A stretch of DNA of 59,467 nt, the filler included, from Jimgerdemannia flammicorona (lineage: Eukaryota): NCBI GenBank assembly GCA_003990765.1. It is 2 parts of 2 records of this genome, joined end to end, with 100 filler letters (N's around TTAATTAATTAA, not from the genome) between each part and the next. Parts side by side here need not be neighbours in the genome. Positions count along the whole stretch, not along the records: positions 29,793 to 59,467 come from RBNJ01000477.1; 1 more part is not named here. One strand, given 5' to 3'. This document shows positions 20,186-51,462 of this stretch, in pieces. The notes under the pieces are model-generated. The model saw only the letters and a list, made by a program, of their open reading frames with translations, did no database searches and was not told the origin of the DNA. How positions within the stretch are numbered: position 1 is the first letter of the stretch; each line of letters opens with the position of its first letter. The position numbers and the translations under genes are program-made.

Positions 20186-20226
<41 letters not shown>

Positions 20227-31075: not shown

Positions 31076-34000
31076 GTGCTGGCACTTATTGCTAAGCAAG
31101 TGGCTGGAGCAGTATTGGTAAAGTTTCTGAAGGGATTGGAGGGAGTGAAGGTGGGCTTTAAGGAGGCTGAGCCTTTAGAGGAGGTGCTGAAGGTTAGTTT
31201 GACTGTAGGGGAGGTGAGTGTCCCAATGGTGCACTGTCTGAGATAGGATCTCAGGGTAGTACAACTGCTGGTGAAAGGAGTACCCACAGTGATAGTGGTG
31301 GAGATGAGAAGAAGAGTTGAGGAGGTCATGGCAGAGTATGGTGAGGTGGTGGACATCAGCTTTAGGGTCTGGGAAGGGACCTCACTCAGGAATAGAGACA
31401 TTGATGTGTGGATTTGGTTGGCTGAGAAGGAAGCTACCAGGAAGGCAAGGGACTGACCTTCAGTAATAGTCTAGGAGGCAATCTTGTGCAAGGTAATGAG
31501 GGTGAAGAGGAGTGAGGAGGAGGAAGAGGATTTGTTGGAAGCATTGGAAGAGCTGAGTGGGGCAGTGGAGTAGTGGGCAAAGGCTTGGAAGGCTTTTGTG
31601 GAATTGATACACTTGGAGGTAGTGGATGGGAAGCAGATTAGAGTGGATAAGGGGCAGTGAAAAAGAGCTCAGGGATGTAAGTATCAGAAGAAGCTGTTGG
31701 CAAAGCTAGAAGATAGACCTTGGAAGGATGTGGGTGGAATGGTGGAGGCTGGGGGTGCCAAAGTGAGTGTCTGGGTCAATGAGAATGGTGGGAGTATAAG
31801 AAAGGTGGCAGAGAAGGACAGGAAAGTGACTGACAATGATCTATATGCTGATGGTATGTTTGAGGTCTGAGAAGAGGGCTGAGAGAGATTGCCTACCCCT
31901 ATTCCTCTTATTAGGCAAGGTCCAACTTTCTAAAGTAAGGTGGTAGAGGATGTGCTGATGAGAGGGGCCCAGCAAGTGCAGTTTGGAGTTCCTGAGGTAG
32001 TGAAGGGGAGACAAGTGGTAGCAGTTAGAGAGGAGGAACTGGTGGATGTCCTGGAGGTGTGGGATGAGTCTGTGAGTGCCAGAGCTGACACCATGATGTT
32101 AGATGGAGGGAGACCAGTGACTCCTAGGGAGAAGGAGGTAGGGAACCTGCTTTGGATGTACCAGATGATGAATAACCTGGCAGCTGAAGAGTTGGGAGAG
32201 GTAGACTTGAGAGTAATGAGCAATAAGCATTGGGTGCAGATCCTACAAGGGGATGGTGTGGAGTTAGCATTGAAGGTGGAGATCCTTGCAGTATATCTAG
32301 AGGAGAAAGAGTATGAGGTGGATAAGGAGTGGGAGGCAGAGCTGGCAGGGGTTACTGGTGAGAGGGCTAAATACTGCTGAGACAAGCATCATAGATTGCA
32401 GCTCTGATAGAAGACCTGCCTGGAGTACCAAGAGGAGTTTGAGGAGAAGGCAGATGGGGAGATGAATGAGCTATTGGCTGGACTAGAGGCTCAGAGGGCT
32501 GAAGAGGAGGAGATGACTGCAGAACATAATCTGGACTTGGTGCAGAAAGAGATAAACATGGAGCAGTAGAGATAGACTGGATAATATACTATATTTCATT
32601 ATAAATAGTACAACTAATATTTTCTTTTTAAATGTGAATGGGTTATGGGATGCTTCTCAACATAGGAACATTTTTACTTGGCTGAAGGAATTGGAGGCTG
32701 ATCTTTTCCTCTTGCAGGATGTCAGGTGTGAGAATGATTTGAATAGGCTAGAATAGATGAAGGAATGGAGAGATATGGCAGTTTGGAAGGGCAAGGTTGG
32801 GATTCTGGTCTGAAAGGGCCAAGGGGAGATATAGGATATAAGGAGCTGGGGGGATAGATTGGTCTGAGGAGAGTGGAAATGTATAGGTTGAGAGCCAGTT
32901 ACCATGAGCTCCTACTACTGTCCTGCTATACAGAGTGAGCATATGGATTGGGTGAAGGGTCTCCAGAAGAGTGAGGTCCTTATAGAGGCTGGGGTAGATG
33001 TGCTTGGTGGAGACTTCAATATGGTCTTAGATGTACTGGTAGATAGAACAGATGGTAGAAGGGGAGCTGAGAGTAGGAGTGGAGGGTTAGTGGTATGGAA
33101 GGATGTGGAAAGGCTAAGTGCTCTGATAGATACTGGTAAGGAGTACTAGGGAGATCAGAAGGTATACATATATTGGGTGGGGGGTCTGGGGATGAGGATC
33201 GACTAGATATTGACAGCTAACTACTGGAGATTAGATGTTTGGAAGTCACTGGAAGTGGAATAGTGCCCTTGGTCAGATCATTGGGGGCTGTTAGGGCAGA
33301 GATGTTTTGGGGGGAGTGGGGATGGGCCTGGACATTGGTGCCTCAATTCCTTGTTATTAGATGATAGGATCTAGTAGAATGTATAGGTAGAAGACATTCA
33401 ACTGAGGGTGGAGAGCTGGAGGCAGGAAGGTGCTCCAGTTGGTGTTCAGTGGATGAGGATGAAAGCAATGGCCAGGGTTTACTGGAGTGAGGCTGGCAGA
33501 GAGGCTGGGAAGCAGAGGAGGTGATAGGTGAGATGGACTTCAATTAGACTGATCAGACTCTTAGAGGATTGGGCAGGGCTAGCAATGGAGGTAGAGGAGA
33601 GAGAGGATTGGAGATTGATAAGAGTAAAAATGGAGGTTGGAGAATTACAACAGATGCTGAGAGTTGAGGAGGAGATAACAGTGTAGGGCTTAGCAGCACA
33701 GCTTTGTTGGCAGGGGTTGGAGAAAGGAGAGAGGCCCTCTAAATATCTCATGAGAGTCCTTCAGGTGAGAAGGGTACAGCAAAGGTGGGAGGGAGTAGTT
33801 GACTCTGATGGGATATAGGTGCATGGTATACAAGACATTCTTGGTTCACTAAAGAAGTGATGGAGTGGATTGTGGAGTGAGAAGGAGGGTGGAGCAGATG
33901 CTGCTGCCATTGACCAGACATTGGAGAATTGGTACTCTCCTCAAGCAGATAGGCTGGGTGACTTAATGTTGCCAGTACAAGAAGAAGAGATCCACCAGGT

Positions 34001-36320
34001 TCTTGCTACAACAATCCTGAGCATGATACCTGGGGAGGATGGTCTGCTCTGGGACTTCTGGAAGAAGATGGTGGAAGTTCTGGGAGTTCTGGATGAGATG
34101 ACAGTATTGTGTGACTTTATATTACAGACAGGGAGATGGGTGGGGGAACAGGATCTGGGGCTGGTAATACTGCTTTACAAGAACAAAGGAAGGTGAGAGG
34201 ACTGGAAGAACTGGTGGCCAATTATGCTACTGGATATGGACAGAAAGTTAGTAACTAAGGTGGTGGTTGCAAGGCTACAGAAGGTGGCCTAGTAAGTCCT
34301 GGGTATTGAGCAGAGGAGTTTTGTAGGTGGCTGGCTTATTAGGGATGGTACAGCTTGGGTGCATGGAGTTATTGAAGGGGTATGAGTCTGTGGACTAGAT
34401 GGGTGATTGGTCTTCTTGGACCAAGAGAAGGCTTATGATCAGGTATAGTGAGTCTGGCTGGTAAAAGTATTAGATTGGATTGGAGTACTACAACAGTTCC
34501 AGTCAGCAATAATCAGCTTACTGGAAAGGAGTAGGGCTGCACTCATATATAATAGACATAGAGGGGTATCATTTCCCTTAGGTAGAGGAGTGCCCCAGGG
34601 GGACCCACTGTCCCCCATTCTATATGCTCTTTCTCTAGAGCCTCTAATGGACAGAATCAGGTAGAAGATAGTAGAGCTTTCTATTTTTGGAATTGGGTGG
34701 AAAGTTGGAGCCTTTGCAGATAATATAGTGGTCAGCCTAGAATCTATTGCAGATATTGAGGAGCTTAAGAAGATAGTGGAGTGGTATGAGGAGAACTCTG
34801 GAGCTAAACTCAATTGACACAAGTATAAAACAATGATGTTGGGCAATGACCTAGTGGGAGGAGATGTTATCAGAACAATTGTCTCTACTGGAAAAGTAGT
34901 ACAGTACTTGGGTATCTATTTGTCAGTATATGGATTGGTACTATCTAGACTCTGGTGAGAGCAGAGGGTTAGAATCTGGAGAGAGACCCTGTAGAGCTGG
35001 GGGGGTTGCCATTTATCTCTAGTGGGGCATGTCTCAATTTTGAATGTCTATTGGCTGCCAAAGTTGTAGTATCTGGCTTATTATCTGGACTTCTCAGCCT
35101 GAGTAGTGAAACAATTGTTGAAGCTGGCCAAGGGGTAGATCTGGGCTAGAAGAAGGAGTCAGATCAGTTGGGAGGTCTTATCCTTACTAGTGGCAAGAGA
35201 AGGACTTGGGCTGGTTGACTTTCCAAAGCAGCTACACTGCTTGAGAGCATAGTGGTTGAAGAGAGCAGTGGAATTGAGAGGGAGCAGCTAAGTTCCCCTA
35301 TTACAGAAGGTCTGAGAGATGAGAGCCTCACCAAGAGACTCAATGGGTGATCTCCTCTCATTGGTTGGGCTTCAGAAAACTACACAATTGCAATATAAAG
35401 GCTTCTGGTAGAGAATAGCCAAGGGGGTACACCATATTGAAATTTGTTGGCAGAGTAATGAAGGAGAGATAGCTTGGGACCCAGTGATGTGGAGATGGAA
35501 CTGAGTATTGCTGGAAGGCATTCCCTTAGTCAAGTTTGACATTAGTAATGGGATAGACTGTCAAAGGGGACAGGGCCAGGATCTGTAGCCTAGCAGATAG
35601 TAGAGAGTTAGTATCAGAGAAAAATGGGACTGATATAGTATATGGGCCTAGAGTGCTGAGGTGAGGAGATGGATACTGCCAAAGTACTGAGCAGTCTGAT
35701 GGCACATACTGAGAAGGAATATAATGCTTAACTTTCACTTCTGACATCTTATCAAGGGGAGTTACTTTGACTATAAGGAGTGTCACAATGTAGGGTAGGA
35801 GGGAGAATATATATAGATATCTGAACATTGGCTAGGAGAGTGTGAGGTACTTAATAACTTCTGGTGGACTGTTAGGGACTGCTTGGGGGTAGTGTATCAA
35901 AGAGACAGCACACAGGGTCAGTGGGAGGATTTGAGAGATAGACTAGTGGGGGGAGTGGGAAAGAAGTGGCTTACCTTAGGCTAGATTTTGGTGATTTGGG
36001 TGGGGCTGGCCAGTCATTGGCTATTTGTTTTTGAAGATGAGAGGAGACTTAGCTTGGGGGACTGATTGTTGTGTTGGCATGGCCTTATGGAAGACACCTT
36101 GACAGGCTGGTGGCTTAGTTGGGGGCTGCAGGATGATCAAAGGCATCACTTAGTAGAGAGAGTCTATAGGTAGAGTAGGGGGAGGGTGGGAGTAGTGGAT
36201 GAGAAGGTGGCCTTTATTTGTAATAATATGGAGAGAGGCTCCTCTATGGGAATTGGGTAAGGAGAGAAGATACTGTATACTTATTAATAGATTGGTAATA
36301 AATGGCAGAGTCTAAGTAAC

Positions 36321-36372
<52 letters not shown>
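31076..36372 (+). mobile_element. LINE copy G (partial ORF1 + decayed ORF2 + poly-A)
   Basis: ORF1 to ~32570; APE (LNVNGL, GGDFN, SDH); RT (PGEDGL, LDQEKAYD, GVPQGDPLSP, AFADN); poly-A 36324-36372; 3' end nearly identical to copy D. Confidence 0.92.
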
Positions 36373-36374
<2 letters not shown>

Positions 36375-36658
36375 GACTCAAAAATGGAGAAGACTACCAC
36401 TCTTAGTAATAGTATTTATTGATAAATATCTATAATATAATATCTTCTTATTTAATATATATATCTTCAGAATCAGAAAAGTGAGCAAAGAGACACTCTG
36501 CTGAATTAAAAGCTAAACCTTTAAGAGTAATCCCAAGTTCTTCAATATCTGATTTTAAAGAAAAAGGTAAAAGAATTCTCTATAGATGAAATACCATAAG
36601 AATAGAGAGAACTCAACTCAAAGGATCAAGATACTAAAGGAGTAGTAAGCCTTATGAC

Positions 36659-37261
36659 TAGTGCTCCGAACGAGTCAATCCAGATGGGATTCAGATGGAT
36701 TCGAATCCCATCCAGATCAACTCGGATTGGATTCGAATCCCATCCAGATGGATTCAAATCAACCATTGTTTTGATTTCCAAATTGGACAATTAAATGTTT
36801 ACATCAATAACTCAATGAATAATCATCTAAATTTGATGATCTTAGTGTCATTTGAAAGCCCTTAATAAGGCCTTTCTAATGATATCAAGAACATTAAAAT
36901 TGGATTACGCGTTGCCGAGATATTAAGGAAAACGTTCTATTTGACGAAATTTCCAAAATCAGCAAATCGAAGAATTTCCAAAATCGGCGATTCAGACGGG
37001 TTCCTTCATAACTCAGCAACGCATGATCGGATTTTAATGTTCTTGGTATCATTAGATAGGCCTTATTAAGGGCTTTCAAATGACACCAAGATCATCAATA
37101 TTGGATGATTATTCATTGAGTTATTGATGTAAACATTTAATTATCTAATTTGGAAATCAAAACAATGGTTGATTCGAATCCCATCCAAGTTGATTCAGAT
37201 GGGATTCAATCTGAATCAATCCGAATCCAATCCGGATTAAATTGACTCGTTAGGAGCACTA
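36659..37261. mobile_element. Non-autonomous hAT-type DNA transposon (MITE), 603 bp, almost fully palindromic
   Basis: TIRs TAGTGCTCCgAACGAGTCAAT / ATTGACTCGTTaGGAGCACTA; 8-bp TSD CTTATGAC (36651-36658, 37262-37269); subterminal GGATTCGAATCC-like repeats; internal arms ~36760-36930 and ~37005-37180. Confidence 0.9.
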
Positions 37262-37909
37262 CTTATGACTCTGCACTATTCTGAGTTTGTAAATTGGATT
37301 CTAGTCTGACCAATGAGCAAGTTCTCAAGAATATATCAGAAATGAGAACAGGGGGAACAGTTATTGTTTTCAACCAAGATGAGTGGGATCCCCAGGATAG
37401 CAGCATGGGGGTGGACATGAGTTAAGGGTGATTGAGAAGAGTGGAGGCTTGATGGAGAGTGGACATAGTAGGTGGCAGCAGAAAAGCTTTTAGGTCTATG
37501 CAAGTTTCAAAGTTAGTTTTTAAAAGAAATAGATTAAAGTAATAATACTATAATTGAGTTTTGTTTTTTACAAAGAGTGGGAGAGAATATATTGGCCTTC
37601 ACAGGCAGATTACCCAAATCAAAAATATCTATCATGTATATCACAATTCTGTTCTATATCTTGTGATTGTATTTTTGTTGCTGATTATCAATGACTAGAC
37701 ATTAACAGATATGTCACTTTTTCTAGTTCTGGACAGTTATTCTCAAGTCAGTGATCTTGGAATTGGAGTAATGACCCTAATCTGATATCTGCTGATGCTA
37801 TGTAGATAAAAATAAAAAAAAGCCATTGTGCTGCTTCACGTAATTATATTATAGTAAAAATAAGCAACTTCTGAGATATTGTGACATCCTTCCACAATTG
37901 TGAATTATA

Positions 37910-40900
37910 TTATACAACAAGTAGAGAATAGAGGAATTGTTTAGAGCAATATATGATACTATTATGGTGGATATGAAGATTGGTAGTAAAAGGTCAAGCA
38001 GTAGAAAACAATAAGCTTATGTGAATTTTCATGATGGAACAAAGAAGCAGAATAAAGTATTTTCTAAATCAAGATACAATAGATCTGCAATCTGCCCTTG
38101 GCACTACAGTATATAGTAGTCTTTATTCAAAATTGAGAATAAAGTTCAGATAAATAAAGACATGGATCTAACTCTAGAATTTCAGAATCAGAATAGTGCA
38201 TAAGTACTCAAGCCTTGCTCTGATCCAAACAATAGTCCGGATCAGGCTTCATTGATCTATACACATGATGGGCTATTAAAAACCTGATATAGAAATGATT
38301 AAGAAAAGATACCAGTCATGTAATCTAATGTTATACATATATAAAACAAATGCTAAAAATGGAACTAAACTAATGACTATCACATGTCATCACATAATTG
38401 TCACTTATAGATTTAAAAACCTAAAAATCATTGACACCCGAAGGTGCAGATATCAGACCTAGAGCCTCATGACTGGAGCAGAGTAGAGTCTTGGTACTGG
38501 AGTAAGTGAAGTGAGCAAAGGTAGACAGGTATCACAGAGCATAAGTATGCAGGCATCAGGCCTAAAGCCTCATGCTGAAGGTTGTCCAGTGATTTTTCAC
38601 ATTTTTAAACATCATATGGCATGTACAGGCAGTGTGGCCTTTAAGGAGAACTTAGAGCAAAACTGGTATTTGAGATGGCATTAAGAATGGTAAAACCATT
38701 CTTCTGGGTGATGATTAGTCATTGGGCAGTCACAGAGAAACCAAAACAGAGCAAAGTGGTACATAGAGTCTTGTTGGGCTATTGATGTAGCCATCAGGCC
38801 ATATTGTATTGGATGACAAGTAATGGGAGAGAAAAAGCAGAGTGGGGGATGGGGGGGTGGGAAATAAGAGGAGAGGTGAGAAGTAAAGTTCGGACCTCAA
38901 GCCAATCAATCAAACTCAATTGAGCAGTTATAATATCAATAGAGTATCCTTTCCTGTGAACCAGGAATTCAGCCAAAGACTGATACTCATCAAGCCAATC
39001 ATGGCAAGATAAGTAGAGTAACGAAAGGCAGTGGGCCTCATTTACAATGTATAGATGAAGCATCTTCCTAGGATGATTGCTCAACTAGTCAACAAACTGA
39101 GTACTATATGAGAATTTGGCAAAACAGCCTGTGCAGAATGGTGTGACTCAGATTTCTAGGTCCAAATAATGGCATGGTCCAGTGGACAAGACTTCCCATT
39201 TGATATGATGATATGAAGAGTACACAGTACTAAAAATTGAGACCAAGTCCATAATCGCAGGTATAAAGATAATAAGATCATCAATATACTGATAGAACTT
39301 TAGCCCAGCAGCAACAGCTTGGCTGAGCAGATGATTGGATGCTTGCAAGGCATGCAATTCATGAGCAAATCCAATAAGATTGATAAGATCCAGAGCACAG
39401 TTAGTGTCCATAGCTATACCAGTTACAAAGTGGAAGGAACTGATGGCAGATGTAAACGTCGTATGAGTCATGACTATGTAGACAAGGCTGAGAATGGCTT
39501 CAAGTAGCAAAGAGCCAGAGGGGAAGACCACTATTGACAAAAAAGTGAGGCAGTTAATGTACTCATCTAATGTGATCCTGGTATAGAAGGTAGCAAAATC
39601 CCCAGTAGCAATATAGTTGCAATCTGACACATCTAGGTAATCTGATTGAACCAATTGTAACAGTTCTAACATATTATATAGAGATGAGTAACATGAGTAA
39701 CCCACATTATAGTACAGATGGGCTGACCACAGGTGGAGAAAGTGAGATAGGAAATGCGAAATCTCAGTTATGAGAGAGTTAAAAGCATCAACGATAGAGT
39801 ACCATGCCATACATGCCCCTTTGTGTACCTTGAGCAGAACATGAAACATAGATAGCTTACAATCATTAGACTCTATAAGATATTCTCAAATTAGTATACA
39901 ACTTCAGTTGCTAATGCAGAACTCAAGTAGACCAAGCAGGTCTAGCCTTACTGATTCCTTAATATTATCAATTATAGAGAAATCATTCACATATGCAGGA
40001 TCATGAAGGAGGGACCAAAGACTGTCTAGATATAGAGTGTGCAAAATTATAGTAAACCCCAAATTTTTGTTGGTAAGATAGACTGTAAAGTCAGCATAAG
40101 TGTGGATATCTTTGAGAAGGTGACAGAACTTCTTCAGTACAAGCATGCTGGATACATTCATTATGGGTCAGACAGCTTGATTTAAAGTAGTACTCATATG
40201 GAGCATAATTTGCATATTTTCCATACAATGCAGCAGTTGCCATTTAGATAGCATCTAGGTGGAGATCTCCAGGGTGTTGTCAGGATTACCCATAGAGGTC
40301 TGGAAGGTGGTAAGGTTGAGATGTCATTGGAATGATGACAACAAAATCAGGTCAATGGTACTATTCATTGATGGTGATCCAGAGAGAACAAACTTAGGGC
40401 CAAAGTTCAGCATATATGTGAGCTCAGGGATAAGCCAAGGCAGAGGTATATCAGTAACAAAGCTCTTCATAGTAAACATCTGAAACCGAGTGATGAAAAA
40501 CTGACTTAAGCGAGAACCAGGAAGAGAAGACACAAAGACAAAATCCTCAATTAGTGTCAAGGTCACTATCATATGTAGAATGGGGACATCAGGGCCAAAC
40601 CATGCTGCTGGGAAGTCATATAAAACTTCCAGGCTGGGGACCTCTAGTTTTTTGATGCTAAAGGACAGACATCGCTGGCATTATACTAGATGACATGATG
40701 TTTGGTGGCAGTACACTTGTTGCACTGCAGTACAAATGCTCTGGCAACACTCTTAGATAAGCAGCTTGAAGTCAACAAGCAGCTGGTCCCAGTAGAAGTA
40801 GAAGAAATAGACAGGGAAGGTGAAGTCTTATGCACTTGCTTGATCTCTTTTACAGAACCCACTGTTTCGACAGGGGCTAGGGGGCAAGGCATCTAGAACA

Positions 40901-42481
40901 GCTATGGCAGTTTGGCACAGCAGAGGCTGAAGTCACACTCACCACCTTTGCCTTTTCCACAGCCCCTACAGGTGCAGCAGTAGAGAGTAGAGGGATGGGG
41001 ATACTCTTTTTCAGTCAGGCGGAACTGGTAGCAGCAGAAGCAAACATATGTTTAATATCTGGAGTAATAATCTCAGGATGATTCCCAAGCTCCTCAACTA
41101 TGGCTTTGTGGGTGGCAGCAGAAATTCCATCTTGCAGGAAGGAGGACACAGAGACAGTCAGGCAGACAGTAGTGGTGGCAGCTTTAGCAGCGGTAGCAGT
41201 GGCAAGACAGTGAGATTGATGCATAATAACATCAAAACCTCAGAGGAGGAACAAGGTAGTTCTTGCTCATTTAGAGGTGGAAATAGTGTAAACATTCTTA
41301 TACAGTCCCTGAGTGGTATCTTTAGGAATCCCAAAGAATGTGAGAGATTCAGATGACACACTCATGGCTTTGTCAATTTTAGCATACTGGTCCTTAGTGT
41401 ACTGGACAGCAGTGATGTTTGTAGTCATGGCAGCCTCAACTGCGGCCATGATATGGTACTTGGCTTCTGCCAAAGCAGTTTCAAGGGTGGCACCACACTG
41501 CTCCTCAGGAAGGAGAGTGATCAAAGCAGCTACTTTCTTGGAAGGAGTAAACTTCCAATTGGCAACTTGGGCCTGTAGAAAGTCAGCATAGTATTCCTTC
41601 ATAGCAATAACTTCAAGGGTGGAAAGTACTCCAGTACAAGCAGCACAGAAGAGAACGGGGATCTTGGCAGATGTGGTGGCAATATAAGTAGCCAGGTTAT
41701 CAAACTCTGCCAAATTGGCAAAGACAGCAGAGGGGACAGCAGCATTGCCATCTACATTCATATTGTCTATCATATTGTGTATTATAAAATGAGTAGAGAA
41801 TAGAGGAATTGTTTAGAGTGAGATATAATACTGTTACAGTGGATATGAAAATTGGTGGTAAAAGATCAAGCAGTAGAAAATAATAAGCTTATATAAATTT
41901 TCATGATAGAACAAAGAAGTAGAATAAAGTGTTTTCTGAAGCAAGGTGCAATAGATCTACAACCTGCTCTTGGTACTACAGTATGTGGTGGTCTTTATTC
42001 AAAATTGAGAACAAAGTTCAGGTAAACAAAGACATAGATCTAACCCTGGAATTCCAGAATCAGAATGGTATATAAGTATCCAAGCCTTGCCCCGATCCAA
42101 ACAATAGTCTGAATCAGGCTTCATCGATCTACATACATAATGGGCCATTAAAAACCCAATATAGAAATGATCAGGAAAAGGTACCAGTCATATGATCTAA
42201 TGTTATACATATATAAAACAAATGCTAAAAATGAAACTAAACCAATAACTGTCATGTATCATCATGTGATTGTCACTATAGATTTAAACTCCTAAAAATT
42301 GTCAGTACCTAAAGGTGCAGGCATTAGGCCTAGAGCCTTATGATTGGAGCAGAGTAGAGCCTCGGCACTAGAGCAAGCAAAGTGAGCAAAGGTAGACAGG
42401 TATCACAGAGTGTAGATATACAGACATCAGGCCTAGAGCCTTATACCAGAGGTTGTCTGGCAATTTTTCACATTTTTAAAC
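37910..42481 (-). mobile_element. Penelope-like retroelement without GIY-YIG endonuclease, left arm (pLTR + ORF1 + RT)
   Basis: ORF1 from ATG 41773; RT frame to stop at 38641 with LNFGPKF, NKNLG, TGDFATFYTRI, GIAMDTNCALDL, YIDD (39277-39288), YLDLEI, SNHP..KGY; 41784-42481 directly repeats 37912-38610. Confidence 0.88.
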
Positions 42482-45400
42482 CTATAAGTGACAATCACAT
42501 GACAACATGTGATAGTCATTGGTCTAGTTCTATTTTTAGCATTTGTTTTATATATATGTAATATTAGATCATATGACCAGTACCTTTTCCCAATTATTTC
42601 TATATTAGGTTTTTAATAGCTCATCATATGTGTAGATCAATGAAGCCCAATTCAGACTATTGTTTGGACTAGAGCAAGGCTCAGGTACTTATGCACCATT
42701 CTGATTTCAGAATTCCAGGGTTAGATCTGTATCTTTGTTTATCTGAACTTTGTTCTTAATTTTGAATAAAGACTGCTATGCACTGTAGTGCCAAGGGCAG
42801 GTTGCAGATCTATTGCACCTTGCTTTGGAAAACACTTTATTCAACTTCTTTGTTCCATTGTGAAAATTTACATAAGCTTATCATTTTCTACTACTTGATC
42901 TTTTATCACCAATCTTCATATCCACTATAATAGTATCACATCTCACTCTAAACAATTCCTCTATTCTTTACTCATTTTATAATACACAACATGACAGACA
43001 ATATGAATGTAGATGGCGATACTGCTGTCCCTCCTACTGCCTTCACCAATTTGGCAGAGTTTGACAACCTGGCTGTCTATATTGCCACCATGTCTACTGA
43101 GGTCCCCATTCTCTTCTGTGCTGCTTGTACTAGAGTACTTTCCACCCTTGAAGTTATTGCTGCAAAGGAACACTGTGCTGACTTTCTGCAGACCCAAGTT
43201 GCCGATTAGAAGTTTACTCCTTCTAAGAAAGTAGCTGCTTCGATTGCCCTCCTTCCTGAGGAGCAGCATGGTGCTGCCCTTGAAACTGCTTTAGCAGAAG
43301 CCAAGTACCATGCCATGGCCACAGTCAAGGCTGCCATGACTACAAATGTTACCACTGCTTAGCACACTAAGGACCAGAATGCTAAAATCGACAAAGCCAT
43401 GAGTATACATATCATCTGAATCTCTCACATTCTTTAGAATTCCTGAAGATGCCACTCAGGGACTATGTAAGAATGTTTACACTGTTTCCACCTCCAAATG
43501 AGCAAGAACTACCTTGTTCCTCCTCTGAGGTTTTGACATTATCATGCATCAATCTTGCCATCTTGCTGCTGCTGCCACTGCTAAAGCCACCACTGCTGCT
43601 GTCTGCCCGACTATCCTCACATCCTCCTCTCTACAAGATGGGATTTCTGCCACTGCCCACAAAGCCATGGTTGAGGAGCTTGGGAATTACCCTGAGATCA
43701 TTACTCCAAGTGTTAAACATATATTTGCTTCTGCTGCTGCCAGTTCTGCCTGACCAAAAAAGAGTGTCCCCACCCCCCTACCCTCTACCACTATGCCTGC
43801 AGGGGCTGTGAGAAAGGTGAAGGTGGTGAGTACAACTTTGGCCTCTGCCATGCCAAACTGCCATAGCTGTTCTGGATGCCTTGGTGTGCCTATGAAGGCC
43901 CACCGAGGTCCTTGCCCCCTAGCCCCTGCTGAGACAGTGGGTTCTGTAAAAGAGATCAAGCAAGCACATAAGGCTTCATCTTCCCCATCCATTTCTTCTG
44001 CTTCTACTGAGACCAGCTGCTCATCAACTTTGAGCTGCTCATCTAAGAGTGCTACCAGAGCATTTGTGCTGTAGTGCAATAAGTGTACTGCTACCAAACA
44101 TCATATCATCTGGCATAATGCTGGCAATGTCTGTCCTCTAGTATCAAAAAACTAGAGGTCCCCAGCCCAGAAGTCTTATATGACTTCCTGGCAGTATGGT
44201 TTGGCCCTGATGTCTCCATTCTATATAGAGTAGTGGTCTTGACACCAATTGAGGATTTTGCCTTCATGTCTTCTCTTCCTAGTTCTCACTTAAGTTAGTT
44301 TTTCATTCCTTGGTTTCAGATATTTATTGAGGAGGGCTTTGTTATTGATATACCTCCACCTTGGCTTACTCCCAAGCTCACATATATGCTGAACTTTGGC
44401 CCTAAGTTTGTTCTCCCTAGATTGGTATCAATGAATAGTACCATTGACCTGATTTCATTGTCATCATTCCAACAGCATCTTGACCTTGCTATCTTCTGGA
44501 CCTCTATAGATAATCCTGACGACATCCCAGAGATCTCTGCCTAGATACTATCTAAATGACAACCACTGCATTATATGGAAAATATGCAAATTATGCTCCA
44601 TATGAGTGCTGCTTTAAATCAAGCTGTCTGACCCATGACAAATGTGTCTGGCATACTTATACCAAAGAAGTTCTGTCACCTTCTCAAAGATGTCTGCACT
44701 CATGCTGACTTTACAGTCTGTCTTATTAATAAAAATCTGAGGTTTGCCATAATTCTGCGCACTCTGTATCTAGATAGTCTTCAGTCCCTCCTTCACAATT
44801 CTGTATACGTAAATGATTTCTCTATGATTGATAACATTAAGGAATCAGTGAGGCTAGACCTGCTTGGTCTACTTAAGTTCTACATTAGTGACTGAAGTTA
44901 TATGCCAATTTGAGAATACCTCATAGAGCTTAATGATTGTAAACTACTCATGTTTCATACTCTGCTCAAGGTATATAAAGGGGCATGTATAGTATGGCAC
45001 CCTATCATTGGTGCTTTTAACTCTCCCATGACTAATATTTTGTATTTCCTATCTTACTTTCTCCACCTATAGTCAGCCCATCTGTACCATAATGTGGGTT
45101 ACTCATGTTACTCACCTCTACATAATATGTTAGAACTGTTACAATTGATTCAATCAGATTATCTAGATGTGTCAGATTGCAACTATATCACTACTGGGGA
45201 TTTTGCTATCTTCTATACTAGGATTACATTAGATGAGTATATTGACTGCCTCACTTTTTTGTCGATGGTAGTCTTTCTCTCTGGCTCTTTGTCACTTGAA
45301 GCCATTCTTGGCCTTGTCTGCATAGTCATGACTCATATGACATTTACATCTGCTATCAGTTCCTTCCACTCCATAACTAGTATAGCTATGGGCACTAACT

Positions 45401-46886
45401 GTACTCCAGATCTTGCCAATCTTGTTGGCTTTACTCATAAATTGCATACCTTGCAAGCACCCAATCATCTGCTCAGCTGAGCTGTTGCTACTGAGCTAAA
45501 GTTCTGCTGGTATATTGATGATCTTATTGTCTTTATACCTGTGATTATGGACTTGGCCTTGATTTTTGGTGCCATGTACTCTTTGCATCATTGTATCGAA
45601 TAGAAAGTCTTGTCTGCCAGACCATGCCATTATTTGGACCTGGAAATCTGAGTTATACTGTTCTGCACAGGCCATTTTGCCAAATTCCCACATAGTACTC
45701 AGTTTGTTGACTGGTTGAGCAATCATCCTAGGAAGATGCTTTGTCTATATATTATGATGAGGCCTGCTGTCTTTTGCTACTCTGCTCATCTTGCCATGAT
45801 TGGCTTGATGAGTGTTGGTCTTTGGCTGAGTTCCTGGTTCACAGAAAAGGATACTCTATTGATGTTGTAATTACTCAATTGAGTTTGGTTGATTGGCTTG
45901 AGGTCTGAACTTTACTTCTCATCCCTTCTCTTGTTTCCCACCCCCCTATCCCCCACTCTGCTTTTCCTCCCCCATTACTTATTGTCCAATATGACATAGC
46001 CTGATGGCTACATCAACAGCCTGACAAGACTCTATGTACCACTTTGCTCCATTTTGGTTTTTCTGTGACTGCCTGACAACCAATCATCACCCAGAAGAAT
46101 GGTTTTATTATTCTCAAATACTAGTTTTGCTCTAAGTCCTCCTTGAAGGCTGCACTGCCTGTATGTGCCGTACAATGTTTAAAAACATGAAAAATCACTG
46201 AACAATCTCCAGCGCAAGGCTCTAGGCCTGATGCCTGCATACCTATACTCTATGATATCTGTCTACCTCCACTCGCTTCACTTGCTTCAGTGCTGAGACT
46301 CTACTTTGCTCCAGTTGTAAGGCTCTAGGCCTGATGCCTGTGCCTTTAGGTGTTAATGATTTTTAGGTTTTTAAACCTATAAGTGACAATCATGTGACAA
46401 TACATGACAGTCATTGGTCTAGTTCTGTTTTTAGCATTTGTTTTATATATGTATAATATTAGATCATGTGACCGGTATCTTTTCCTGATCATTTCTATAT
46501 CAGGTTTTTAATGGCCTGTCATGTGTGTAGATTGATGAAGCCCAATTCAGACTATTGTTTGGATCAGAGCAAGGCTCAGATACTTATGTACTATTCCAAT
46601 TCTAAAATTCCAGGGTTAGATCTGTGTCTTTGTTTACCTGAACTTTGTTCTCAATTTTGAATAAAGACTGCCACATACTGTGGTACTGAGGGTGGGTTGC
46701 AGATCTATTGCACCTTACTTTGGAAAACACTTTATTCTGCTTCTTTATTCTATTGTGAAAATTCACATAAGCTTATCATTTTCTACTGCTTGACCTTTTA
46801 CCACTGATCTTCATATCTGCTGTAATAGTATCACATCTCACTCTAAACAATTCCTCTATTCTCTACTCGTTTTATAAAAAAAAAAA
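42473..46886 (+). mobile_element. Penelope-like retroelement without GIY-YIG endonuclease, right arm (pLTR + ORF1 + RT + short poly-A)
   Basis: pLTR 42473-42980 repeated at 46368-46875; ORF1 42991-44155; RT frame ~44146-46146 with IAMGTNCTPDLANL, YIDD (45511-45522) and thumb SNHP motif; A11 at 46876-46886. Confidence 0.88.
44146..44208 (+). promoter_or_regulatory. Candidate -1 programmed ribosomal frameshift signal (A_AAA_AAC + stop + stem-loop); mirror copy at ~40591-40653 on the minus strand
   Basis: ORF1 ends TCA AAA AAC TAG; the -1 frame continues KLEVPS.EVLYDF.. into LNFGPKF; hairpin gaagtc/gacttc at 44170-44187. Confidence 0.7.
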
Positions 46887-46906
46887 GCCAATTTTTTTCA
46901 TTCCAG

Positions 46907-47507
46907 CTCCAACCCGACTCGCTGCACCAATATTGTCCCCGCCTCCCAGCTCGACACCGACATCGCCAACAATGCTGTACCACAGTTTGTTTTCTATATG
47001 CCCAACATGAACAACAATGGTAAGTGAACACGTTATCCCCTCCTTGCCCCCTCCAATCCCCCACAATACTCACCCATCCATCCCATCGCATCCACATATA
47101 TCCAGGTCATAACACAAACATCGACACGGCCTCAGAGTGGCTCAAGAAATTCTTGGAGCCGAAACTAAAGCAGCCTGCTTTCTTTGACAACACTCTTATC
47201 CTCGTCACGTTCGACGAACAGGAGGACTACATTTCACTACATAATCACATATTTGCCATGCTCATTGGCGGAGCCATGAAAAGAACGATTAGGGAGGATT
47301 CGACGGTGTATAACCATTACAGTGTGTTGGCAATGGTTGAGAGGAATTTGGTACGTGTGGTTTTTCAACGGTTTTGAGCAGGTGATAGTGGATCGATTTA
47401 TAGTGCTTCAATTAACGACGATTTTCTAATAATTCTACACACAGAGCCTGGGTAACCTCGGCGAGAAAGATGTCGATGCCACTCCCTTCGCCACAACGAA
47501 TAATTGA
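46907..47507 (+). pseudogene. 3' half of a phosphoesterase-family (fungal acid phosphatase-like) gene
   Basis: Exons 46907-47019, 47106-47350 and 47445-47507 with GT-AG introns give SNPTRCTNIVPASQLDTDIANNAVPQFVFYMPNMNNNGHNT..WLKKFLEP..NTLILVTFDE..YNHYSVL..LGNLGEKD; 5' exons not found. Confidence 0.8.
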
Positions 47508-49171
47508 GTTGTGAAATTGATTTCCAAATACGAGTATTTAATGGGGAGGGAACCTGATTATTTCTGAACGAATGAACATTTTGAGTTTAGAAAAATTTAT
47601 ACAAGACTAAATAAAATAAACGGAAAACATACAGAAGAGTCCGAAATTTAGATTTCAGAAATCACTAACATGACGACTAAAAACAAAAAACGAAGTGAGA
47701 CAATAATGAGAAGGATAGCGCGAAATCTTTGATTGGACATTCTCTGAAAACAACACCCATGTTCCCGCCATCCAGTTAGGTAGGTTTTTTTTTTTTTTTA
47801 GCACATTGTCAATTGTTGTTTTGAGTGTATTGTGCGTTTTGAGCACATTGTCATTTTGGATTCACAGCATGAAATCCATAGCCACCTGAATAAAAGGCTT
47901 ACTGAATAATGCCATCTGTGCATGTTGCTCATACCCTATTTATTTTAAAGATAATGGCGTTACCGGCGGATTTCGGACATTAGGGGATGAGACGTTTTTT
48001 TCACTCGTATATACTCAAAGTAGAAAAATTTAGAACTTCAAATTTCAGTGACGTCATCTTTTCGAAATTATCCTAATTGCGAAATCGACGGACAGCTAAC
48101 TGTCGCAGTTGCAGAAACATAGGAAACGGAGGAAGTCACTAACAAACCACGACCTCCATATAATATCCTAGATCAGCAAAGGAAAGATATGAGCCAACAT
48201 TTGACGTTCGTCTATTTCGAACATCACAAGCTAACGTCTCGCCATGTGAGATTGCTAAATCCATCACATCTGTAAGGCGACACCTGATGACGGCTTGATA
48301 ACCGTGGAAAGTTGGTAAAATGGCTTATAAATACAGTCAAAAAACAAAAATAAATTCTATCCTACCGCGGGCGCCCCGTTTCTTGGGTGTCTTCTCCCAT
48401 GCGGGTTGCGAATGGTGATTCTGCGGAAAAAATTGCATTCATTTGATTATCGACCTGGTTAACAATCGTCGATTTTTGAGAACCGTATATACCTGCCAAA
48501 GGCCCATCGCCCCGTCGCTTGGTTGTGGGACTCGCACACATGAATCACACCGCCCCCGTTTTCTCTTTTCTTCTCTCACTCCCTCCCCCTTACTCTACCA
48601 TTTTCATAGACACTTCTCTAGATTCTTAGAGCCTCTACACATTCATAGAGAGGTTTTTTTTTGTTCTCTACTGGATGGATTCGGTGAGGAGCAACAGACG
48701 GGGATAATTATGAATGGGTTGAAACTTCGTGGCGTGGTTGTTATTTCCATTTTGTGGAGAATTCCGATATATAGTCAACCAATGGTTTTAGATACAGCCT
48801 TGCTCAAGTCACGTTTCCTACCACGACGTGTAATTTATTTGACCAAACTTCATTCGTCTCCTTCAAAAGGTTTTGTCGGCGTTGTTCTTTTCCCACGATG
48901 TAATAAAAAATGTATCTCGAATGGGCCTGTTAGATCCTTGGTCCTGATCAGGACGAGTTGGAAACAAAGCGTTTTTGCACTATCCAACCTGAGGGTGGGG
49001 GCGATAACTATGGGGAAGGGCTATGACGTGAGTGTGTGAGGCAGTGTAGCTACGTCATTCCCCTTGTTAACAAAACCTCGCTTACAAGAACCAACGAAGC
49101 TTCTCACTTCCCTTTAAAAAACACATCATACATTACCAATCGAATACACTCACTGCGCAAACAAACAGTTC

Positions 49172-51200
49172 ATGTTGAAGCTACCCATCGAAAACCGCCA
49201 CAAGCACGTCGGCGCGTAAGTCTTCAAGTGATCTCACTATTCCCCTTCGACTCATTCCACATCACACCTTTCTCCTTTCGACCATTGTTTACTTTCGCTA
49301 ACCATCTGCGTCACTTGGTGCACTTCACCTCTCTTCATACTCTCAAAGCAAACTCACGGTCGCCATTGCTCGCCTTGCTAACTCATTGTCCGTATACTAC
49401 TAGATCTAGAGATTGCACCACCGTGCACGCCAACCGCGACCCTGGCGTCAACAACTTCACTCAGCCTGAGGTGGTCGCCGAGCATCCACCAGTGGTTCAT
49501 GGTCCTCAATTTTTGAAGTTCGAGGCGACTAACAAGACCATAAAAGAATCTGCCAAATACTCCAAGTATATGAACTATATTACACTTCGTGTTGCCGCCA
49601 AAGCTCGACCTCTTGTGTATGTAATATGTCTATATGTTCAGAAGTCCCTTTCACTTACCTATTTCATATTTTTATTTTCGTTCGTTCTCTTCCAAAGTCA
49701 ACCTGGTGGATATCTTTGAAATGAAGAAAGACGTCATGCGCGAGCGCGAAATGAAGAAATTGGCGGGACAGGTATGTTAACGTGATTGACCAAGACAGGG
49801 TTGGATTCGGACGTTTTGGGGACGGTAGAAGGAAGGGGGACAGTGTGTCAGGGTGAAAAAAACAAAACGGGCGGCGTAGGGTGGAAGCGAGGCGTTAACT
49901 GAACCGGACACGAACCATTTTATTATCACCATACTGGGCACCGTCATAAAGACAATTATCTCCTCCGATTGGCTCGCGAGTTATCAGTCTCGCATGAACG
50001 TCGAGTTACGCAAAAAGAGCTGGAGGGAAGTCAGAAAGGCCAGAAAAACCACTTTAATGCATCAGATCAGCAAACACCGCTTCACGGGCACGCAGGCCAA
50101 GTCGACCAAAAACACGACCGACCCCAATCACCCGCTCGCGTATCCGGCCTTGGCCCCAGCTTCGACTTTCCATAGCCCGCTTCCCAGCCTCGATCCCTCG
50201 CCTTTCAGGCGGAGCTTCAAGAACCTGGAGGCTGACGAGAAGGACTATATACGTCCGCCGACCCCACCAAATTCTCCCACTTTCGCTCCGTCAGTGCAAA
50301 AGCTGCCGAATCCAGATTCAAGCCCATAGTTGGCCATCGCACACTAACGACAAGAAGTTTGCGGCCGTCCAACCCGCACACCTCGGCAGTGTCCCGCACG
50401 AGATCGACCCTCCCGCAAACAACATCCCAATCCGCAATTCCTTCCTCCCAATACCCGTCCTCCACAGCGATCTGTACAATGGGAAGAAGACTCCCGTAGC
50501 TGATCTCTTGCCCACTGGCGTTGACCATCGCCATGCAGCGCTCTAAACCGAGTCGCGGTCATCACAGTTGTCGAGGAGGTACATAATGATCGTGGGAAGA
50601 GCAGCAGCCGCAGCAGGACGTCCTTTTCAATGGTGCTTTTCTTGAACATAACGACCTCAGCTTTCGGCTTCGGTACGAACAACTACTTTCACAGCAATCT
50701 CAGCAACAGCCTGCGCAGCAGGATAATTCTCAGCAGTAACAGGAATTTGACCGTATCGGCCTCTCCGGGATCAGCTGCGATTCCCAGTTCCAATACCAGC
50801 CATTTGAACTGATCGGGCTATCTAATTCATTCCAACAACAGCAGGCGCAACAACTCGAGGAGCATCAATGGGTACAAAAACAGCAACAACAGCAGGCGCA
50901 ACAACAGCAGCGCAACAACAGCAGGCGCAACAACAGCAGGCGCAACAACAGCAAGCGCAACAACAACAGGCGCAACAACAGTGCGCGAAACAACAGCAGG
51001 TGCAACAACAGCAGACACAACAACAGTGGACCCAGCAACAGTACGCTCAACAACAGCAGCAGCAACAGTACACCTAACAACAGCGGCAACAGTAACAGTA
51101 CGCCCAACAGCAGCATCAGCAACAGTACGTCCAACAACAACAGCAGCAGCTACCAGTCATTGCATCACGACGGCGCAGCCGCCTTCGCCCCATTAACTTT
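49172..51200 (+). pseudogene. Spliced hypothetical gene relic with Pro/Ser-rich and Gln-rich C-terminal region
   Basis: ATG 49172, donor GTAAGT 49216, acceptor 49403 in compatible phase, exon 49698-49771 with GTATGT donor; downstream frames broken by stops and shifts. Confidence 0.4.
50884..51150. repeat. Imperfect 15-18 bp tandem repeat (caacaacagcaggcg), poly-Gln-like
   Basis: Reads QQQQA repeats in one frame and TTAGA in another. Confidence 0.9.
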
Positions 51201-51462
51201 CAACAAGCACTGCGCAGGAAGCAGAAAACGAAGCAGAGGGCGCAACGAGAGCCAGAGCCCGCTGGCGTTCATCGATGGCGAATGGCCGCCAAGGCGTTAC
51301 CACATCCCGGCAGTATTTGGGCGCGTCCGCCGCGCAGGCCTGATACGCGGGGTCGCTGAGCGGTTCAAGGGGAGAGGAACATGAAAATGTGGATGATGGC
51401 AATAGTTAGACAAGAGGAACTGATTTGTGCTTTTTCTACTTCGAGGCAATGCGATCGAATCC

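Follow-up and report, generated by a model that had tools for sequence, protein, structure and literature searches.

How an inverted pair of retroelement copies that encodes no endonuclease came to be inserted in DNA without telomeric repeats is the question raised by this locus. Endonuclease-deficient (EN-minus) Penelope-like elements (PLEs) are viewed as telomerase's nearest mobile relatives and have been described as mostly restricted to chromosome ends. The window (the whole 59-kb stretch of DNA analyzed) is repeat-rich, with abundant long interspersed elements (LINEs) that carry an APE domain, and the pair is flanked by a LINE/foldback region on one side and by a gene fragment on the other. 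The locus holds a composite insertion, now dead, of a single EN-minus PLE family in an Endogonales fungus, and no further copies of the retroelement were identified in the window beyond the two arms.

The region from 37910 to 46886 consists of two arms of approximately 4.4 to 4.5 kb each in inverted orientation, with their 5' ends together and their 3' ends outward, as an earlier sequence-only reading of this DNA had described. The left arm occupies 37910 to 42481 on the minus strand, and the right arm occupies 42473 to 46877 on the plus strand and is followed by a run of nine A residues (46878 to 46886) between its 3' terminus and host DNA. In both, the order is pseudo-LTR, ORF1, the reverse transcriptase (RT) ORF (ORF2), and pseudo-LTR. 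The retroelement unit is approximately 3.9 kb, and each arm is a partial tandem in which a pseudo-LTR, corresponding to the last 700 or 510 nt at the 3' end of the unit, precedes one full unit. The tandem junction, ...TATAA joined to TACACAAYATG, is common to both arms, with the ORF1 ATG located 9 to 11 nt into the unit. Repeat alignment placed the full-length 5' pseudo-LTR of the left arm (approximately 700 nt) at 41780 to 42481 on the minus strand, and a four-copy alignment identified its direct repeat, the noncoding 3' end of the same arm, at 37910 to 38610 (repeat from 37908), with the terminal motif ...TATAA located at 37910. In the right arm (plus strand), a 5'-truncated pseudo-LTR of approximately 510 nt spans 42473 to 42982, and the 3' copy spans 46177 to 46877, where the same ...TATAA terminus is found. 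As the right 5' pseudo-LTR is approximately 190 to 205 nt shorter than the other copies, the palindrome is asymmetrical at its center. The arms meet there at a 9-nt microhomology, TTTTTAAAC, read directly from the sequence at 42473 to 42481 and present in both arms; it corresponds to the antisense of the pseudo-LTR start and to the sense strand of pseudo-LTR positions ~186 to 194.

The two arms share approximately 85% identity over approximately 4.4 kb; 637 transitions and 57 transversions separate them, together with four internal indels (4, 31, 1, and 11 nt). Tandem and inverted PLE structures are said in the available text of PMC8557442 to trouble assembly, and two runs of N at 29693 to 29792 in the window were counted as a sign that the assembly is not gap-free, so that two separate copies might have been misjoined or a chimeric read might have produced the inversion. 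However, divergence at 15% of sites together with private indels indicates two distinct decayed copies and not a mirrored read, and a misjoin caused by repeat collapse would connect homologous sequence in the same orientation rather than opposite strands that share a 9-nt overlap; an assembly artifact was thus considered very unlikely.

ORF2, of approximately 680 amino acids, contains the PLE N-terminal motifs, a DKN-like motif, RT1 to RT7, and the thumb, and ends approximately 30 nt before the 700-nt noncoding 3' end. Its frame was identified by translation at 38641 to 40680 on the minus strand of the left arm, with 10 internal stops and no frameshift, and at 44119 to 46146 on the plus strand of the right arm, where the end was inferred from the arm alignment and deletions of 1 nt (at 45755) and 11 nt (at 46111) interrupt the frame. 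Aligning both arms with three relatives (P0002, P0004, and P0006) revealed LNFGPKF, (N)KNLG, the LLKVHK block, GIAMGTNCxPDLxNL, YIDD, SNHP, and HRKGY, accounting for all of the Penelope-class motifs quoted previously. The DKN-like motif is NKNLG in both arms, with D replaced by N, and DKNLG in P0004, P0008, P0009, and P0011. A profile built from five outside relatives only matched the unaltered left arm with an E value of 1.4e-79 and the right arm with E values of 5e-57 and 1.4e-13 in two frames, whereas two LINE RTs of the same window scored E > 2. On these matches the RT is assigned to the Penelope-like class, distinct from the LINE RTs of the window, in agreement with the original assignment.

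Using a profile made from both arms, 80 proteins were matched at E ≤ 1e-3 among 1.84 billion. By Pfam, seven of the 80 (3 of 59 plus 4 of 21) carry a C-terminal GIY-YIG domain beside RVT_1, which is the architecture of endonuclease-encoding (EN-plus) PLEs, and none of the 10 best-scoring matches does. The named relatives of the RT belong to Glomeromycotina, namely, Gigaspora margarita and Racocetra fulgida. A tree of 70 rows was built by a "quick" method, without named references or an outgroup and with the two-copy reconstruction as the row for the element, which the program flagged for unusual composition. In this tree the element grouped with P0002 (SH-aLRT, 99) and then with P0090 (Gigaspora margarita) and P0004 (99), giving a clade of four rows that includes a G. 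margarita protein, and all eight EN-plus rows fell inside a separate 18-row clade (96).

The absence of GIY-YIG at either end, noted from inspection of the sequence, held in both searches performed. No match to the domain was obtained by Pfam at E ≤ 1 in the three sense frames of each arm, and none with a PLE-specific endonuclease hidden Markov model (HMM), which recovers 11 of 127 fetched proteins, in six frames of positions 36500 to 48000 (best score, 3.9 bits). The two-copy reconstruction of ORF2 aligned to within 2 to 10 residues of its own end with RT-only proteins, the partners being covered over residues 1 to 405 of 406 in P0002 (cut by a contig end), to 540 of 554 in P0090, and to 594 of 622 in P0004. 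The element is thereby classed, from its predicted protein, as an EN-minus PLE whose ORF2 terminates where its RT-only relatives do. According to the available text of PMC8557442, the PLE clades lacking a hammerhead ribozyme motif in their pseudo-LTRs are Naiads and most Chlamys. No hammerhead match was obtained with Rfam at E ≤ 1 in positions 36000 to 49000, with a core-motif regular expression in the four pseudo-LTRs and their reconstruction, or at the gathering score in 20 related loci; that of the element may have been erased by decay.

ORF1 and the RT ORF are both present and both broken in each arm, matching the two-ORF structure proposed earlier, and the Ala-rich ORF1, put there at ~390 amino acids, was found to be approximately 386 amino acids long, with 20% Ala. 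Its predicted product is helical and Ala/Ser-rich, and no relatives of it were detectable. Frameshifting indels occur in each arm. In the left arm (minus strand), ORF1 spans 40644 to 41773, with its ATG at 41773 and its stop at 40644 to 40646, and a 31-nt deletion near 40890 destroys the frame; in the right arm (plus strand), it spans 42991 to 44155, with its ATG at 42991 and its stop at 44153 to 44155, and 4 nt inserted after 43405 shift the frame. A conserved start codon is absent from ORF2, which lies in the -1 frame and overlaps the last 33 nt of ORF1. Within this overlap is the heptamer A_AAA_AAC, identical in both arms and in the ORF1 frame, directly followed by the ORF1 stop, with ORF2 continuing onward in the -1 frame. 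The heptamer is at 40647 to 40653 on the minus strand of the left arm (coordinates from the arm alignment) and at 44146 to 44152 on the plus strand of the right arm, where it is the only in-frame canonical slippery heptamer in a 750-nt stretch of ORF1 (positions 43409 to 44160). The lack of a conserved ORF2 start, the -1-frame overlap, and the heptamer before the ORF1 stop point to ORF2 most likely being produced as an ORF1-ORF2 fusion through -1 ribosomal frameshifting. Among 25 related metagenome loci, 11 have an upstream +1-frame ORF1 of at least 290 amino acids, and an in-frame slippery heptamer was found in the overlap at 13 of 14 related metagenome loci having an upstream +1-frame ORF1, in overlaps that are A-rich and where slippery heptamers may arise by chance. 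A probable -1 frameshift site is thus common to the element and many uncultured relatives. RNA folding downstream of the slippery site was no better than that of shuffled sequences (z = -0.87 and -0.99) and showed no stimulatory structure.

Both copies are dead and full of C-to-T decay. The CpG observed/expected ratio is 0.09 to 0.11 in the arms versus 1.06 in positions 47000 to 52000, and the decay of the copies was a repeat-targeted C-to-T change, chiefly at sites that had been CpG. Across all six pairings, the four pseudo-LTR copies are 83 to 87% alike, although this equal divergence is a weak clock, as hypermutable sites saturate and only 5 to 9 transversions separate each pair. Two-state columns in the pseudo-LTR alignment comprised 90 singletons, 20 that divide the copies by arm, 15 crosswise, and 11 by position, and no grouping was apparent, so a single sequence appears to have given rise to all four pseudo-LTRs, with divergence beginning at roughly the same time.

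The left and right flanks of the element are unrelated, and both outer junctions fall exactly at the 3' terminus of the element, joining it to unrelated nontelomeric DNA. Beyond the right end, the A-run (9 to 11 A) is followed 18 nt later by a splice-acceptor-like CAG, at which an exon starts. This exon matches residue 171 onward of a 310-amino-acid phosphoesterase (P0129), and the fragment as a whole, a 5'-truncated phosphoesterase-family gene on the plus strand (exons 46905 to 47021, 47105 to 47347, and 47448 to 47504), corresponds to residues 171 to 310. Residues 1 to 170 were found nowhere in the window, in line with the truncated host gene originally noted at the right end. The exons are 87 to 100% identical to a Jimgerdemannia flammicorona protein (Endogonales, Mucoromycota), and by this identity the host is placed in Endogonales, close to Jimgerdemannia, and not among basidiomycetes. 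No target-site duplication (TSD) was seen at the two outer junctions, and no (TTAGGG)2 with up to one mismatch was found on either strand of the whole window, so that motif scanning and junction inspection upheld the description of the site as nontelomeric and free of telomeric repeats and TSD.

A nick or cut supplied in trans by another element, such as a LINE APE or the endonuclease of an EN-plus PLE, could have received the element RNA. Such an origin would accord with the A9 to A11 after the right 3' terminus and the T-rich host stretch adjoining it, with the APE-bearing LINEs that fill the neighborhood, and with the common occurrence of tandem and inverted insertions among EN-plus PLEs (PMC8557442, available text). 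It is nonetheless quite unlikely given the lack of a TSD and of an A-run at the left end, a host gene whose 5' half is missing rather than displaced, and the failure to see an EN-plus PLE in the arms (Pfam) or in positions 36500 to 48000 (HMM).

Telomere-attached PLEs have their 3' ends toward the centromere and their 5' ends at the terminus, so if two chromosome ends that each bore a terminal EN-minus PLE as a cap had fused end to end and become internal, exactly the head-to-head layout seen here would result. The orientation here is that of the telomeric Coprina-1_Alen, with its ORFs toward the centromere (PMC13159263, available text), the left flank is unrelated to the right one, and CCCTAA or CCCTAAA repeats at 3 of the 25 related metagenome loci indicate that some relatives are telomere associated. 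However, no telomeric repeat occurs at the outer junctions, at the center, or anywhere in the window, whereas in Ascochyta lentis telomeric repeats separate the element from the chromosome (same source and extent). In addition, the pseudo-LTRs do not group by arm beyond chance-like parallel changes, which is easier to obtain from one event than from two caps acquired separately. Fusion of two capped ends was therefore judged unlikely.

The reading we consider probable is that of an EN-minus PLE, expressed by a frameshift fusion, which formed a break-primed dimer in a single event and later underwent C-to-T decay. As the element encodes no endonuclease, its RT would have had to use preexisting 3'-OH ends of DNA. 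Element RNA would have been reverse transcribed from both DNA ends of a break, either a single double-strand break at which the gene lost its 5' half or a pair of broken ends. The antisense cDNAs, one from each end, would then have paired at the 9-nt self-complementary stretch in the pseudo-LTR and been filled in, forming the head-to-head dimer. Break priming is the most economical reading of two junctions at the 3' terminus with no TSD and no telomeric repeats, and the same terminal motif in both arms and a gene without residues 1 to 170 also favor it; the ungrouped pseudo-LTRs and the 9-nt microhomology at the center favor a single event.

Fold-back priming also occurs at short self-complementary stretches, and the central junction lies in such a stretch. 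One ordinary insertion could thus have been copied later in inverted form, by fold-back or template switching at replication or by a breakage-fusion-bridge cycle. Against this, both arms stop at the same 3' terminus of the element (37910 and 46877), and the palindrome includes no host DNA on either side, where flank would be expected on at least one; a later inverted duplication is accordingly improbable, about as much so as cleavage in trans. Break priming at an internal site, as proposed in the sequence-only reading, therefore fits the anatomy of this one locus and is plausible but unproven from one dead pair of copies. That EN-minus PLEs of Endogonales and Glomeromycotina routinely integrate at internal breaks, primed from both ends and with cDNAs pairing in the pseudo-LTR, is a doubtful extension, although one with a real chance of being correct. 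If true, the tandem and inverted architecture characteristic of all PLEs would arise from the RT and its RNA rather than from the GIY-YIG endonuclease, and EN-minus PLEs would constitute a break-healing system away from telomeres.

Endonuclease-independent LINE-1 insertion and cDNA capture at double-strand breaks use preexisting ends, lack TSDs, and involve loss of target DNA; such insertions are usually single and truncated, and their RT is of a class other than that of PLEs. The element shares with endonuclease-independent LINE-1 the missing TSD and the target loss but differs as a full-length head-to-head dimer with precise 3' termini. Among EN-minus PLEs, Coprina-1_Alen of A. lentis (4.5 kb) has a coil-domain ORF1, a DKN-RT-thumb ORF2, and flanking direct repeats (PMC13159263, available text), and a two-ORF fungal EN-minus PLE is thus already in print. 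The element resembles it in length (~4.5 kb), two ORFs, an EN-less ORF2 with DKN, RT1 to RT7, and thumb, direct repeats flanking the ORFs, and a fungal host. The ORF1 products differ, being coiled and disordered in Coprina-1_Alen and helical, Ala/Ser-rich, and without matches in the element, although neither has an enzymatic domain. In the available account, Coprina-1_Alen lies at chromosome ends bracketed by telomeric repeats, in contrast to the absence of such repeats from the 59 kb studied here; its direct repeats are 63 and 255 bp, compared with ~700 bp in the element, and no head-to-head form is described in that text (PMC13159263). According to the same text, the Coprina clade is usually single-ORF, with Coprina-1_Alen a two-ORF exception, and the element, with two ORFs in both arms, likewise departs from the usual form.

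Athena of bdelloid rotifers is also EN-minus with two ORFs, and its ORF1 can contain a coiled coil and be set apart through a frameshift with a pseudoknot (PMC8557442, available text). As far as that account and that of PMC13159263 extend, Athena differs in its animal host, telomere attachment, short reverse-complement telomeric repeats, and hammerhead, of which the last three were not found in the element; such repeats at the 3' end, together with a terminal or subterminal location, are a feature of EN-minus PLEs. The typical PLE insertion is a partial tandem with an inverted copy adjoining at the 5' end, and GIY-YIG cleavage properties have been suggested as the cause of complex PLE structures (both from the available text of PMC8557442). 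Penelope/Poseidon, Neptune, and Naiad, all of which encode GIY-YIG, thus share with the element a pseudo-LTR derived from a partial tandem and an inverted copy at the 5' end, whereas the element has this layout without that domain, and its inverted copy is full length rather than 5' truncated as in the EN-plus PLEs of the available descriptions. The head-to-head layout is therefore typical for PLEs and not special to this locus, and the nontelomeric site is mildly unusual. One decayed locus alone settles nothing on the normal integration mode of the family. What is new here is the slippery-site -1-frame ORF2, the 9-nt junction microhomology, the ungrouped pseudo-LTRs, and the Endogonales host, which the locus adds to those of EN-minus PLEs. 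A full PLE layout with precise 3' termini and no endonuclease at a nontelomeric site provides small evidence that this layout needs no endonuclease and that EN-minus PLEs can use nontelomeric DNA ends.

A repeat search of positions 36000-49000 bore out the inverted repeat described in the sequence-only reading, resolving it into one large inverted repeat whose colinear blocks are split by small indels, with direct repeats also present within each arm. The left arm (minus strand, 37910-42481) and the right arm (plus strand, 42473-46877) are approximately 4.4 to 4.6 kb in size, and each carries a terminal direct repeat of approximately 700 nt, located at 41780-42481 and 37908-38610 in the left arm and at 42473-42982 (5'-shortened) and 46177-46877 in the right arm. 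The spacing of these repeats gives a unit of approximately 3.87 to 3.90 kb. Global alignment of one arm against the other yielded 3,862 matches, 637 transitions, 57 transversions, and four internal indels: the right arm has 4 nt extra after 43405 and lacks 1 nt at 45755 and 11 nt at 46111, and the left arm lacks 31 nt near 40890. The palindrome itself is confirmed, and it is very improbable that two arms differing in this manner were placed head to head by misassembly. Using the right arm as a BLASTN query, no further copies were found across the whole window, with matches confined to both arms and the internal repeats.

Inside the arms, the tandem junction joins the 3' terminus (...TATAA) immediately to TACACAAYATG, placing the ORF1 start codon 9 to 11 nt into the unit. 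This junction sequence identifies the terminal repeat as a partial tandem of the element's noncoding 3' end, making it a pseudo-LTR and not a true LTR. An LTR or DIRS element was ruled out, as the RT is of the PLE type, the repeats are partial tandem copies of the element's 3' end, and there is no integrase or recombinase.

Both arms are heavily decayed. The CpG observed/expected ratio was 0.09 to 0.11 in the arms, 1.06 in the gene-bearing region 47000-52000, and 0.22 in the whole window. Of the 637 transitions, 480 (as a count of sites) fall in dinucleotide pairs that can be derived from an ancestral CpG, namely, CA/TG (n = 114, two sites each), TA/TG (n = 126), CA/TA (n = 94), CA/CG (n = 18), and CG/TG (n = 14). 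The TG/TA and CA/TA differences, which were as common between the arms as CA/TG, could reflect either two changes at one former CpG or a process also acting on CpA/TpG; this unusual, repeat-targeted mutation pattern suggests either repeated mutation of former CpGs or a CpA/TpG preference resembling RIP in a Mucoromycota genome.

A two-copy reconstruction was built from both arms by taking C at every C/T difference and G at every G/A difference. The reconstructed ORF1 has 386 codons (19.7% Ala and 10.6% Ser), in keeping with the Ala-rich ORF1 of approximately 390 aa proposed previously, and the reconstructed ORF2 has 679 codons. Both are still interrupted by stops, and thus many changes are common to the two arms. 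ORF1 starts at 41773 in the left arm, where its frame is intact up to the 31-nt deletion, and at 42991 in the right arm, where the frame is lost at the 4-nt insertion and the sense frame is regained afterward. The unaltered left-arm ORF2 frame (40680-38641) is free of frameshifts and is interrupted by 10 internal stops.

ORF2, in the -1 frame, opens 33 nt 5' of the ORF1 stop codon and has no start codon conserved between the arms. Both arms contain TCA AAA AAC TAG, which places a canonical A_AAA_AAC heptamer in the ORF1 frame immediately 5' of the stop, the sole in-frame canonical heptamer in the scanned 750 nt of right-arm ORF1. From these features, ORF2 was most likely made by -1 frameshifting, and the legend to figure 1 of PMC8557442 states that PLE ORF1 can be set apart by a frameshift. 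A hairpin lies 13 to 16 nt downstream of the slippery site in both arms; folding of the 122-nt stretches was not more stable than that of shuffled sequences (z, -0.87 and -0.99). An upstream +1-frame ORF of at least 290 aa overlapping the RT ORF was present in 11 of 25 related metagenome loci, and in most of the remaining loci the region upstream of the RT ORF reaches the contig end. When three shorter ORFs were included, 13 of the 14 loci with an upstream ORF had an in-frame slippery heptamer in the overlap, a count taken from A-rich overlaps without a shuffled control.

The ORF1 product had no family match in Pfam, its best ESM Atlas score (0.87) was under the 0.9 lead level, and no similarity to the ORF1s of 10 related loci was found (best E, 0.12). 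Single-sequence AlphaFold2 prediction for residues 1 to 294 was unusable (mean pLDDT, 33.8). ORF1 terminates in two Cys/His clusters, and the similarity of its C-terminal Cys/His cluster to the zinc-finger-like linker of PLEs with a C-terminal GIY-YIG domain (EN-plus) was weak and nonsignificant (E, 0.32; 3.1 bits by HMM). The ORF1s of the related loci resemble one another only pairwise and have Lys-rich tails.

A word-index protein search with the left-arm RT returned no matches, as the decayed sequence has too few exact words in common. Pfam gave RVT_1 on the raw arms only at an E value of 0.068, short of the cutoff, and a two-arm profile searched against PDB sequences gave nothing beyond two rows at chance level (E, 1.4 and 2.5). 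Using the two-arm profile with HMMER, 80 proteins were identified at E ≤ 1e-3 among 1.84 billion representative proteins, the top match being a 406-aa metagenome fragment, P0002 (E, 3e-61). A control profile without window sequence, made from five relatives (P0004, P0090, P0002, P0006, and P0007), matched the unaltered left arm at 1.4e-79 and the right arm, whose frameshift requires two frames, at 5e-57 and 1.4e-13. Both LINE reverse transcriptases of the window gave E > 2. The assignment to a Penelope-type RT therefore stands, and the motifs quoted for it were found aligned with those of the relatives (LNFGPKF, (N)KNLG, GIAMGTNCxPDLxNL, YIDD, and SNHP).

Of 124 proteins with BLASTP matches, 69 were combined with the reconstruction in a maximum-likelihood tree of 70 rows, omitting eight members of already-represented 90% clusters and all proteins not spanning reconstruction residues 290 to 540. 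In this tree, made by a quick method with no outgroup or named references and with the window row flagged for unusual composition, the element grouped with P0002 (SH-aLRT, 99) and next with P0090 and P0004 (99), and all eight EN-plus rows fell within a separate 18-row clade (96). Identity to the query in the best segment was 23 to 38% across 48 metagenome loci, none of which was a close copy of the element's family. P0003, a 78-aa protein from a 651-bp ENA contig, is 68% identical to the reconstruction over the latter's N-terminal RT region and seems to represent a further family copy in a public assembly.

RVT_1 with a C-terminal GIY-YIG, the endonuclease-bearing PLE architecture, was detected with Pfam in seven of the 80 matches (P0019, P0024, and P0055 of 59 scanned and P0063, P0073, P0075, and P0078 of 21 scanned) and in none of the ten best. 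The absence of GIY-YIG noted earlier held in a Pfam scan (E ≤ 1) of each arm's three sense frames. An endonuclease HMM comprising the linker and GIY-YIG of three EN-plus matches, which recovers 11 of 127 fetched proteins at E ≤ 1e-3, found no endonuclease in the six frames of 36500-48000 or in the reconstruction (best score, 3.9 bits). Alignment of the reconstructed ORF2 to RT-only proteins reaches 2 to 10 residues from its own end, covering residues 1 to 405 of 406 in P0002 (cut by the contig end) and extending to residue 540 of 554 in P0090 from Gigaspora margarita and residue 594 of 622 in P0004, and ORF2 ends approximately 30 nt 5' of the pseudo-LTR start. An endonuclease acting in trans could also have opened the insertion site; we consider this improbable. 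Rfam searches identified nothing in the element or in 20 related loci.

The right flank holds a fragment of a phosphoesterase gene, with exons at 46905-47021, 47105-47347, and 47448-47504 that share 87, 94, and 100% identity, respectively, with residues 171 to 310 of P0129, a phosphoesterase-family protein labeled Jimgerdemannia flammicorona. Residues 1 to 170 of P0129 were not found anywhere in the 59 kb. The host lies outside the basidiomycetes, the group given for Coprina in the sequence-only reading, as this flanking gene resembles a protein of J. flammicorona, and Jimgerdemannia belongs to the Endogonales, Mucoromycota. The window derives from that species or from a near relative, or else the gene fragment is a paralog. 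After the right 3' terminus at 46877 come nine more A's (eleven if the final AA of TATAA is counted), GCCAATTTTTTTCATTCCAG, and the exon, in that order; thus, the join lies in what looks like an intron, in agreement with the A11 junction to a truncated gene reported before. As also claimed, no TSD is present, and the window contains no telomeric repeats. Fusion of two PLE-capped chromosome ends would also give a head-to-head layout; such a fusion is unlikely.

On the left, the palindrome is flanked by a stretch of unique AT-rich DNA (37262-37904), then by a foldback of 600 bp (36659-37261), and then by a LINE carrying APE and RT domains, with a long A-run at its end. The foldback, self-inverted over approximately 600 bp with arms 77 to 90% complementary, sits between this A-run and the left flank of the palindrome and may be a MITE-like element. 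A second inverted pair consists of LINE copies at 20188-25447 (minus strand) and 31065-36359 (plus strand; APE endonuclease and RVT_1 by Pfam), which are 80% identical and approximately 5.6 kb apart; further LINE-pair coordinates are 1915-3128 and 24840-26049. On their sense strands, the LINEs have a strong excess of G over C (GC skew of about ±0.5), and skew blocks therefore alternate along the window. Two N-runs of 44 N each (29693-29736 and 29749-29792) lie between TE-rich blocks and represent either a gap or masking. An open frame at approximately 50700-51400 (plus strand), downstream of the phosphoesterase exons, contains long Gln-rich (QQQQA-type) repeats and has no Pfam match.

Both arms stop at an identical terminal motif, at 37910 and 46877, and the inverted homology ends at the flanks, with none beyond. 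The center, TTTTTAAAC (plus strand, 42473-42481), matches the opening bases of the left pseudo-LTR in antisense and positions ~186 to 194 of the right-arm pseudo-LTR in sense; as these two parts are mutual reverse complements, TTTTTAAAC constitutes a 9-nt microhomology. The four pseudo-LTR copies share 83 to 87% identity in all six pairings. No grouping emerged from their two-state columns: 90 are singletons, and 20 split the copies by arm, 15 crosswise, and 11 by position (for transversions, 11 singletons and 1 by position). Thus, the copies diverged from a single sequence at roughly the same time, with saturation at hypermutable sites weakening pseudo-LTR divergence as a clock. An inverted duplication arising later, by which one arm would have been copied from the other, has a low probability. 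Classic L1 twin priming was ruled out, as it inverts part of one copy and here there are two full copies.

Since the element is EN-minus, it needs preexisting 3'-OH ends. In the simplest scenario, each of the two DNA ends of a break would have primed one cDNA, and the two cDNAs would then have paired at the self-complementary stretch TTTTTAAAC and been filled in to produce the palindrome.

Two features had been overstated as novel. According to PMC8557442, a typical PLE insertion has pseudo-LTRs together with an inverted copy next to its 5' end, a complexity that the paper suggests is caused by the endonuclease. A two-ORF structure is described in PMC13159263 for Coprina-1_Alen, a 4.5-kb element with flanking direct repeats, an ORF1 with a coil domain, and an NLS-DKN-RT-thumb ORF2, found at 13 chromosome ends between telomeric repeats; the discussion there gives one ORF as usual for Coprina and two for Athena. 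PLEs are also listed among the transposable-element families of G. margarita (PMC13443276). In the literature matches listed, none naming Jimgerdemannia or Endogonales also names Penelope, such a list being no proof of absence. Reverse-complement telomere-type repeats, in RT sense orientation as described for telomere-attached EN-minus PLEs, occur in three of the 25 related metagenome loci: CCCTAAA repeats approximately 140 nt downstream of the RT ORF end in L020 (2747-2875) and CCCTAA repeats upstream of the RT ORF in L004 (95-112) and L011 (21-32). The two EN-minus clades presented in PMC8557442, Athena and Coprina, are telomere attached via reverse-complement telomeric repeats and hammerhead motifs. 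The present element is of the same type as these known EN-minus PLEs; it differs in host order, lacks telomeric repeats and a detectable hammerhead, has a long pseudo-LTR, and forms a full-length head-to-head dimer at an internal site; its interest rests on this EN-independent, nontelomeric, precisely terminated dimer, together with the shared frameshift site.
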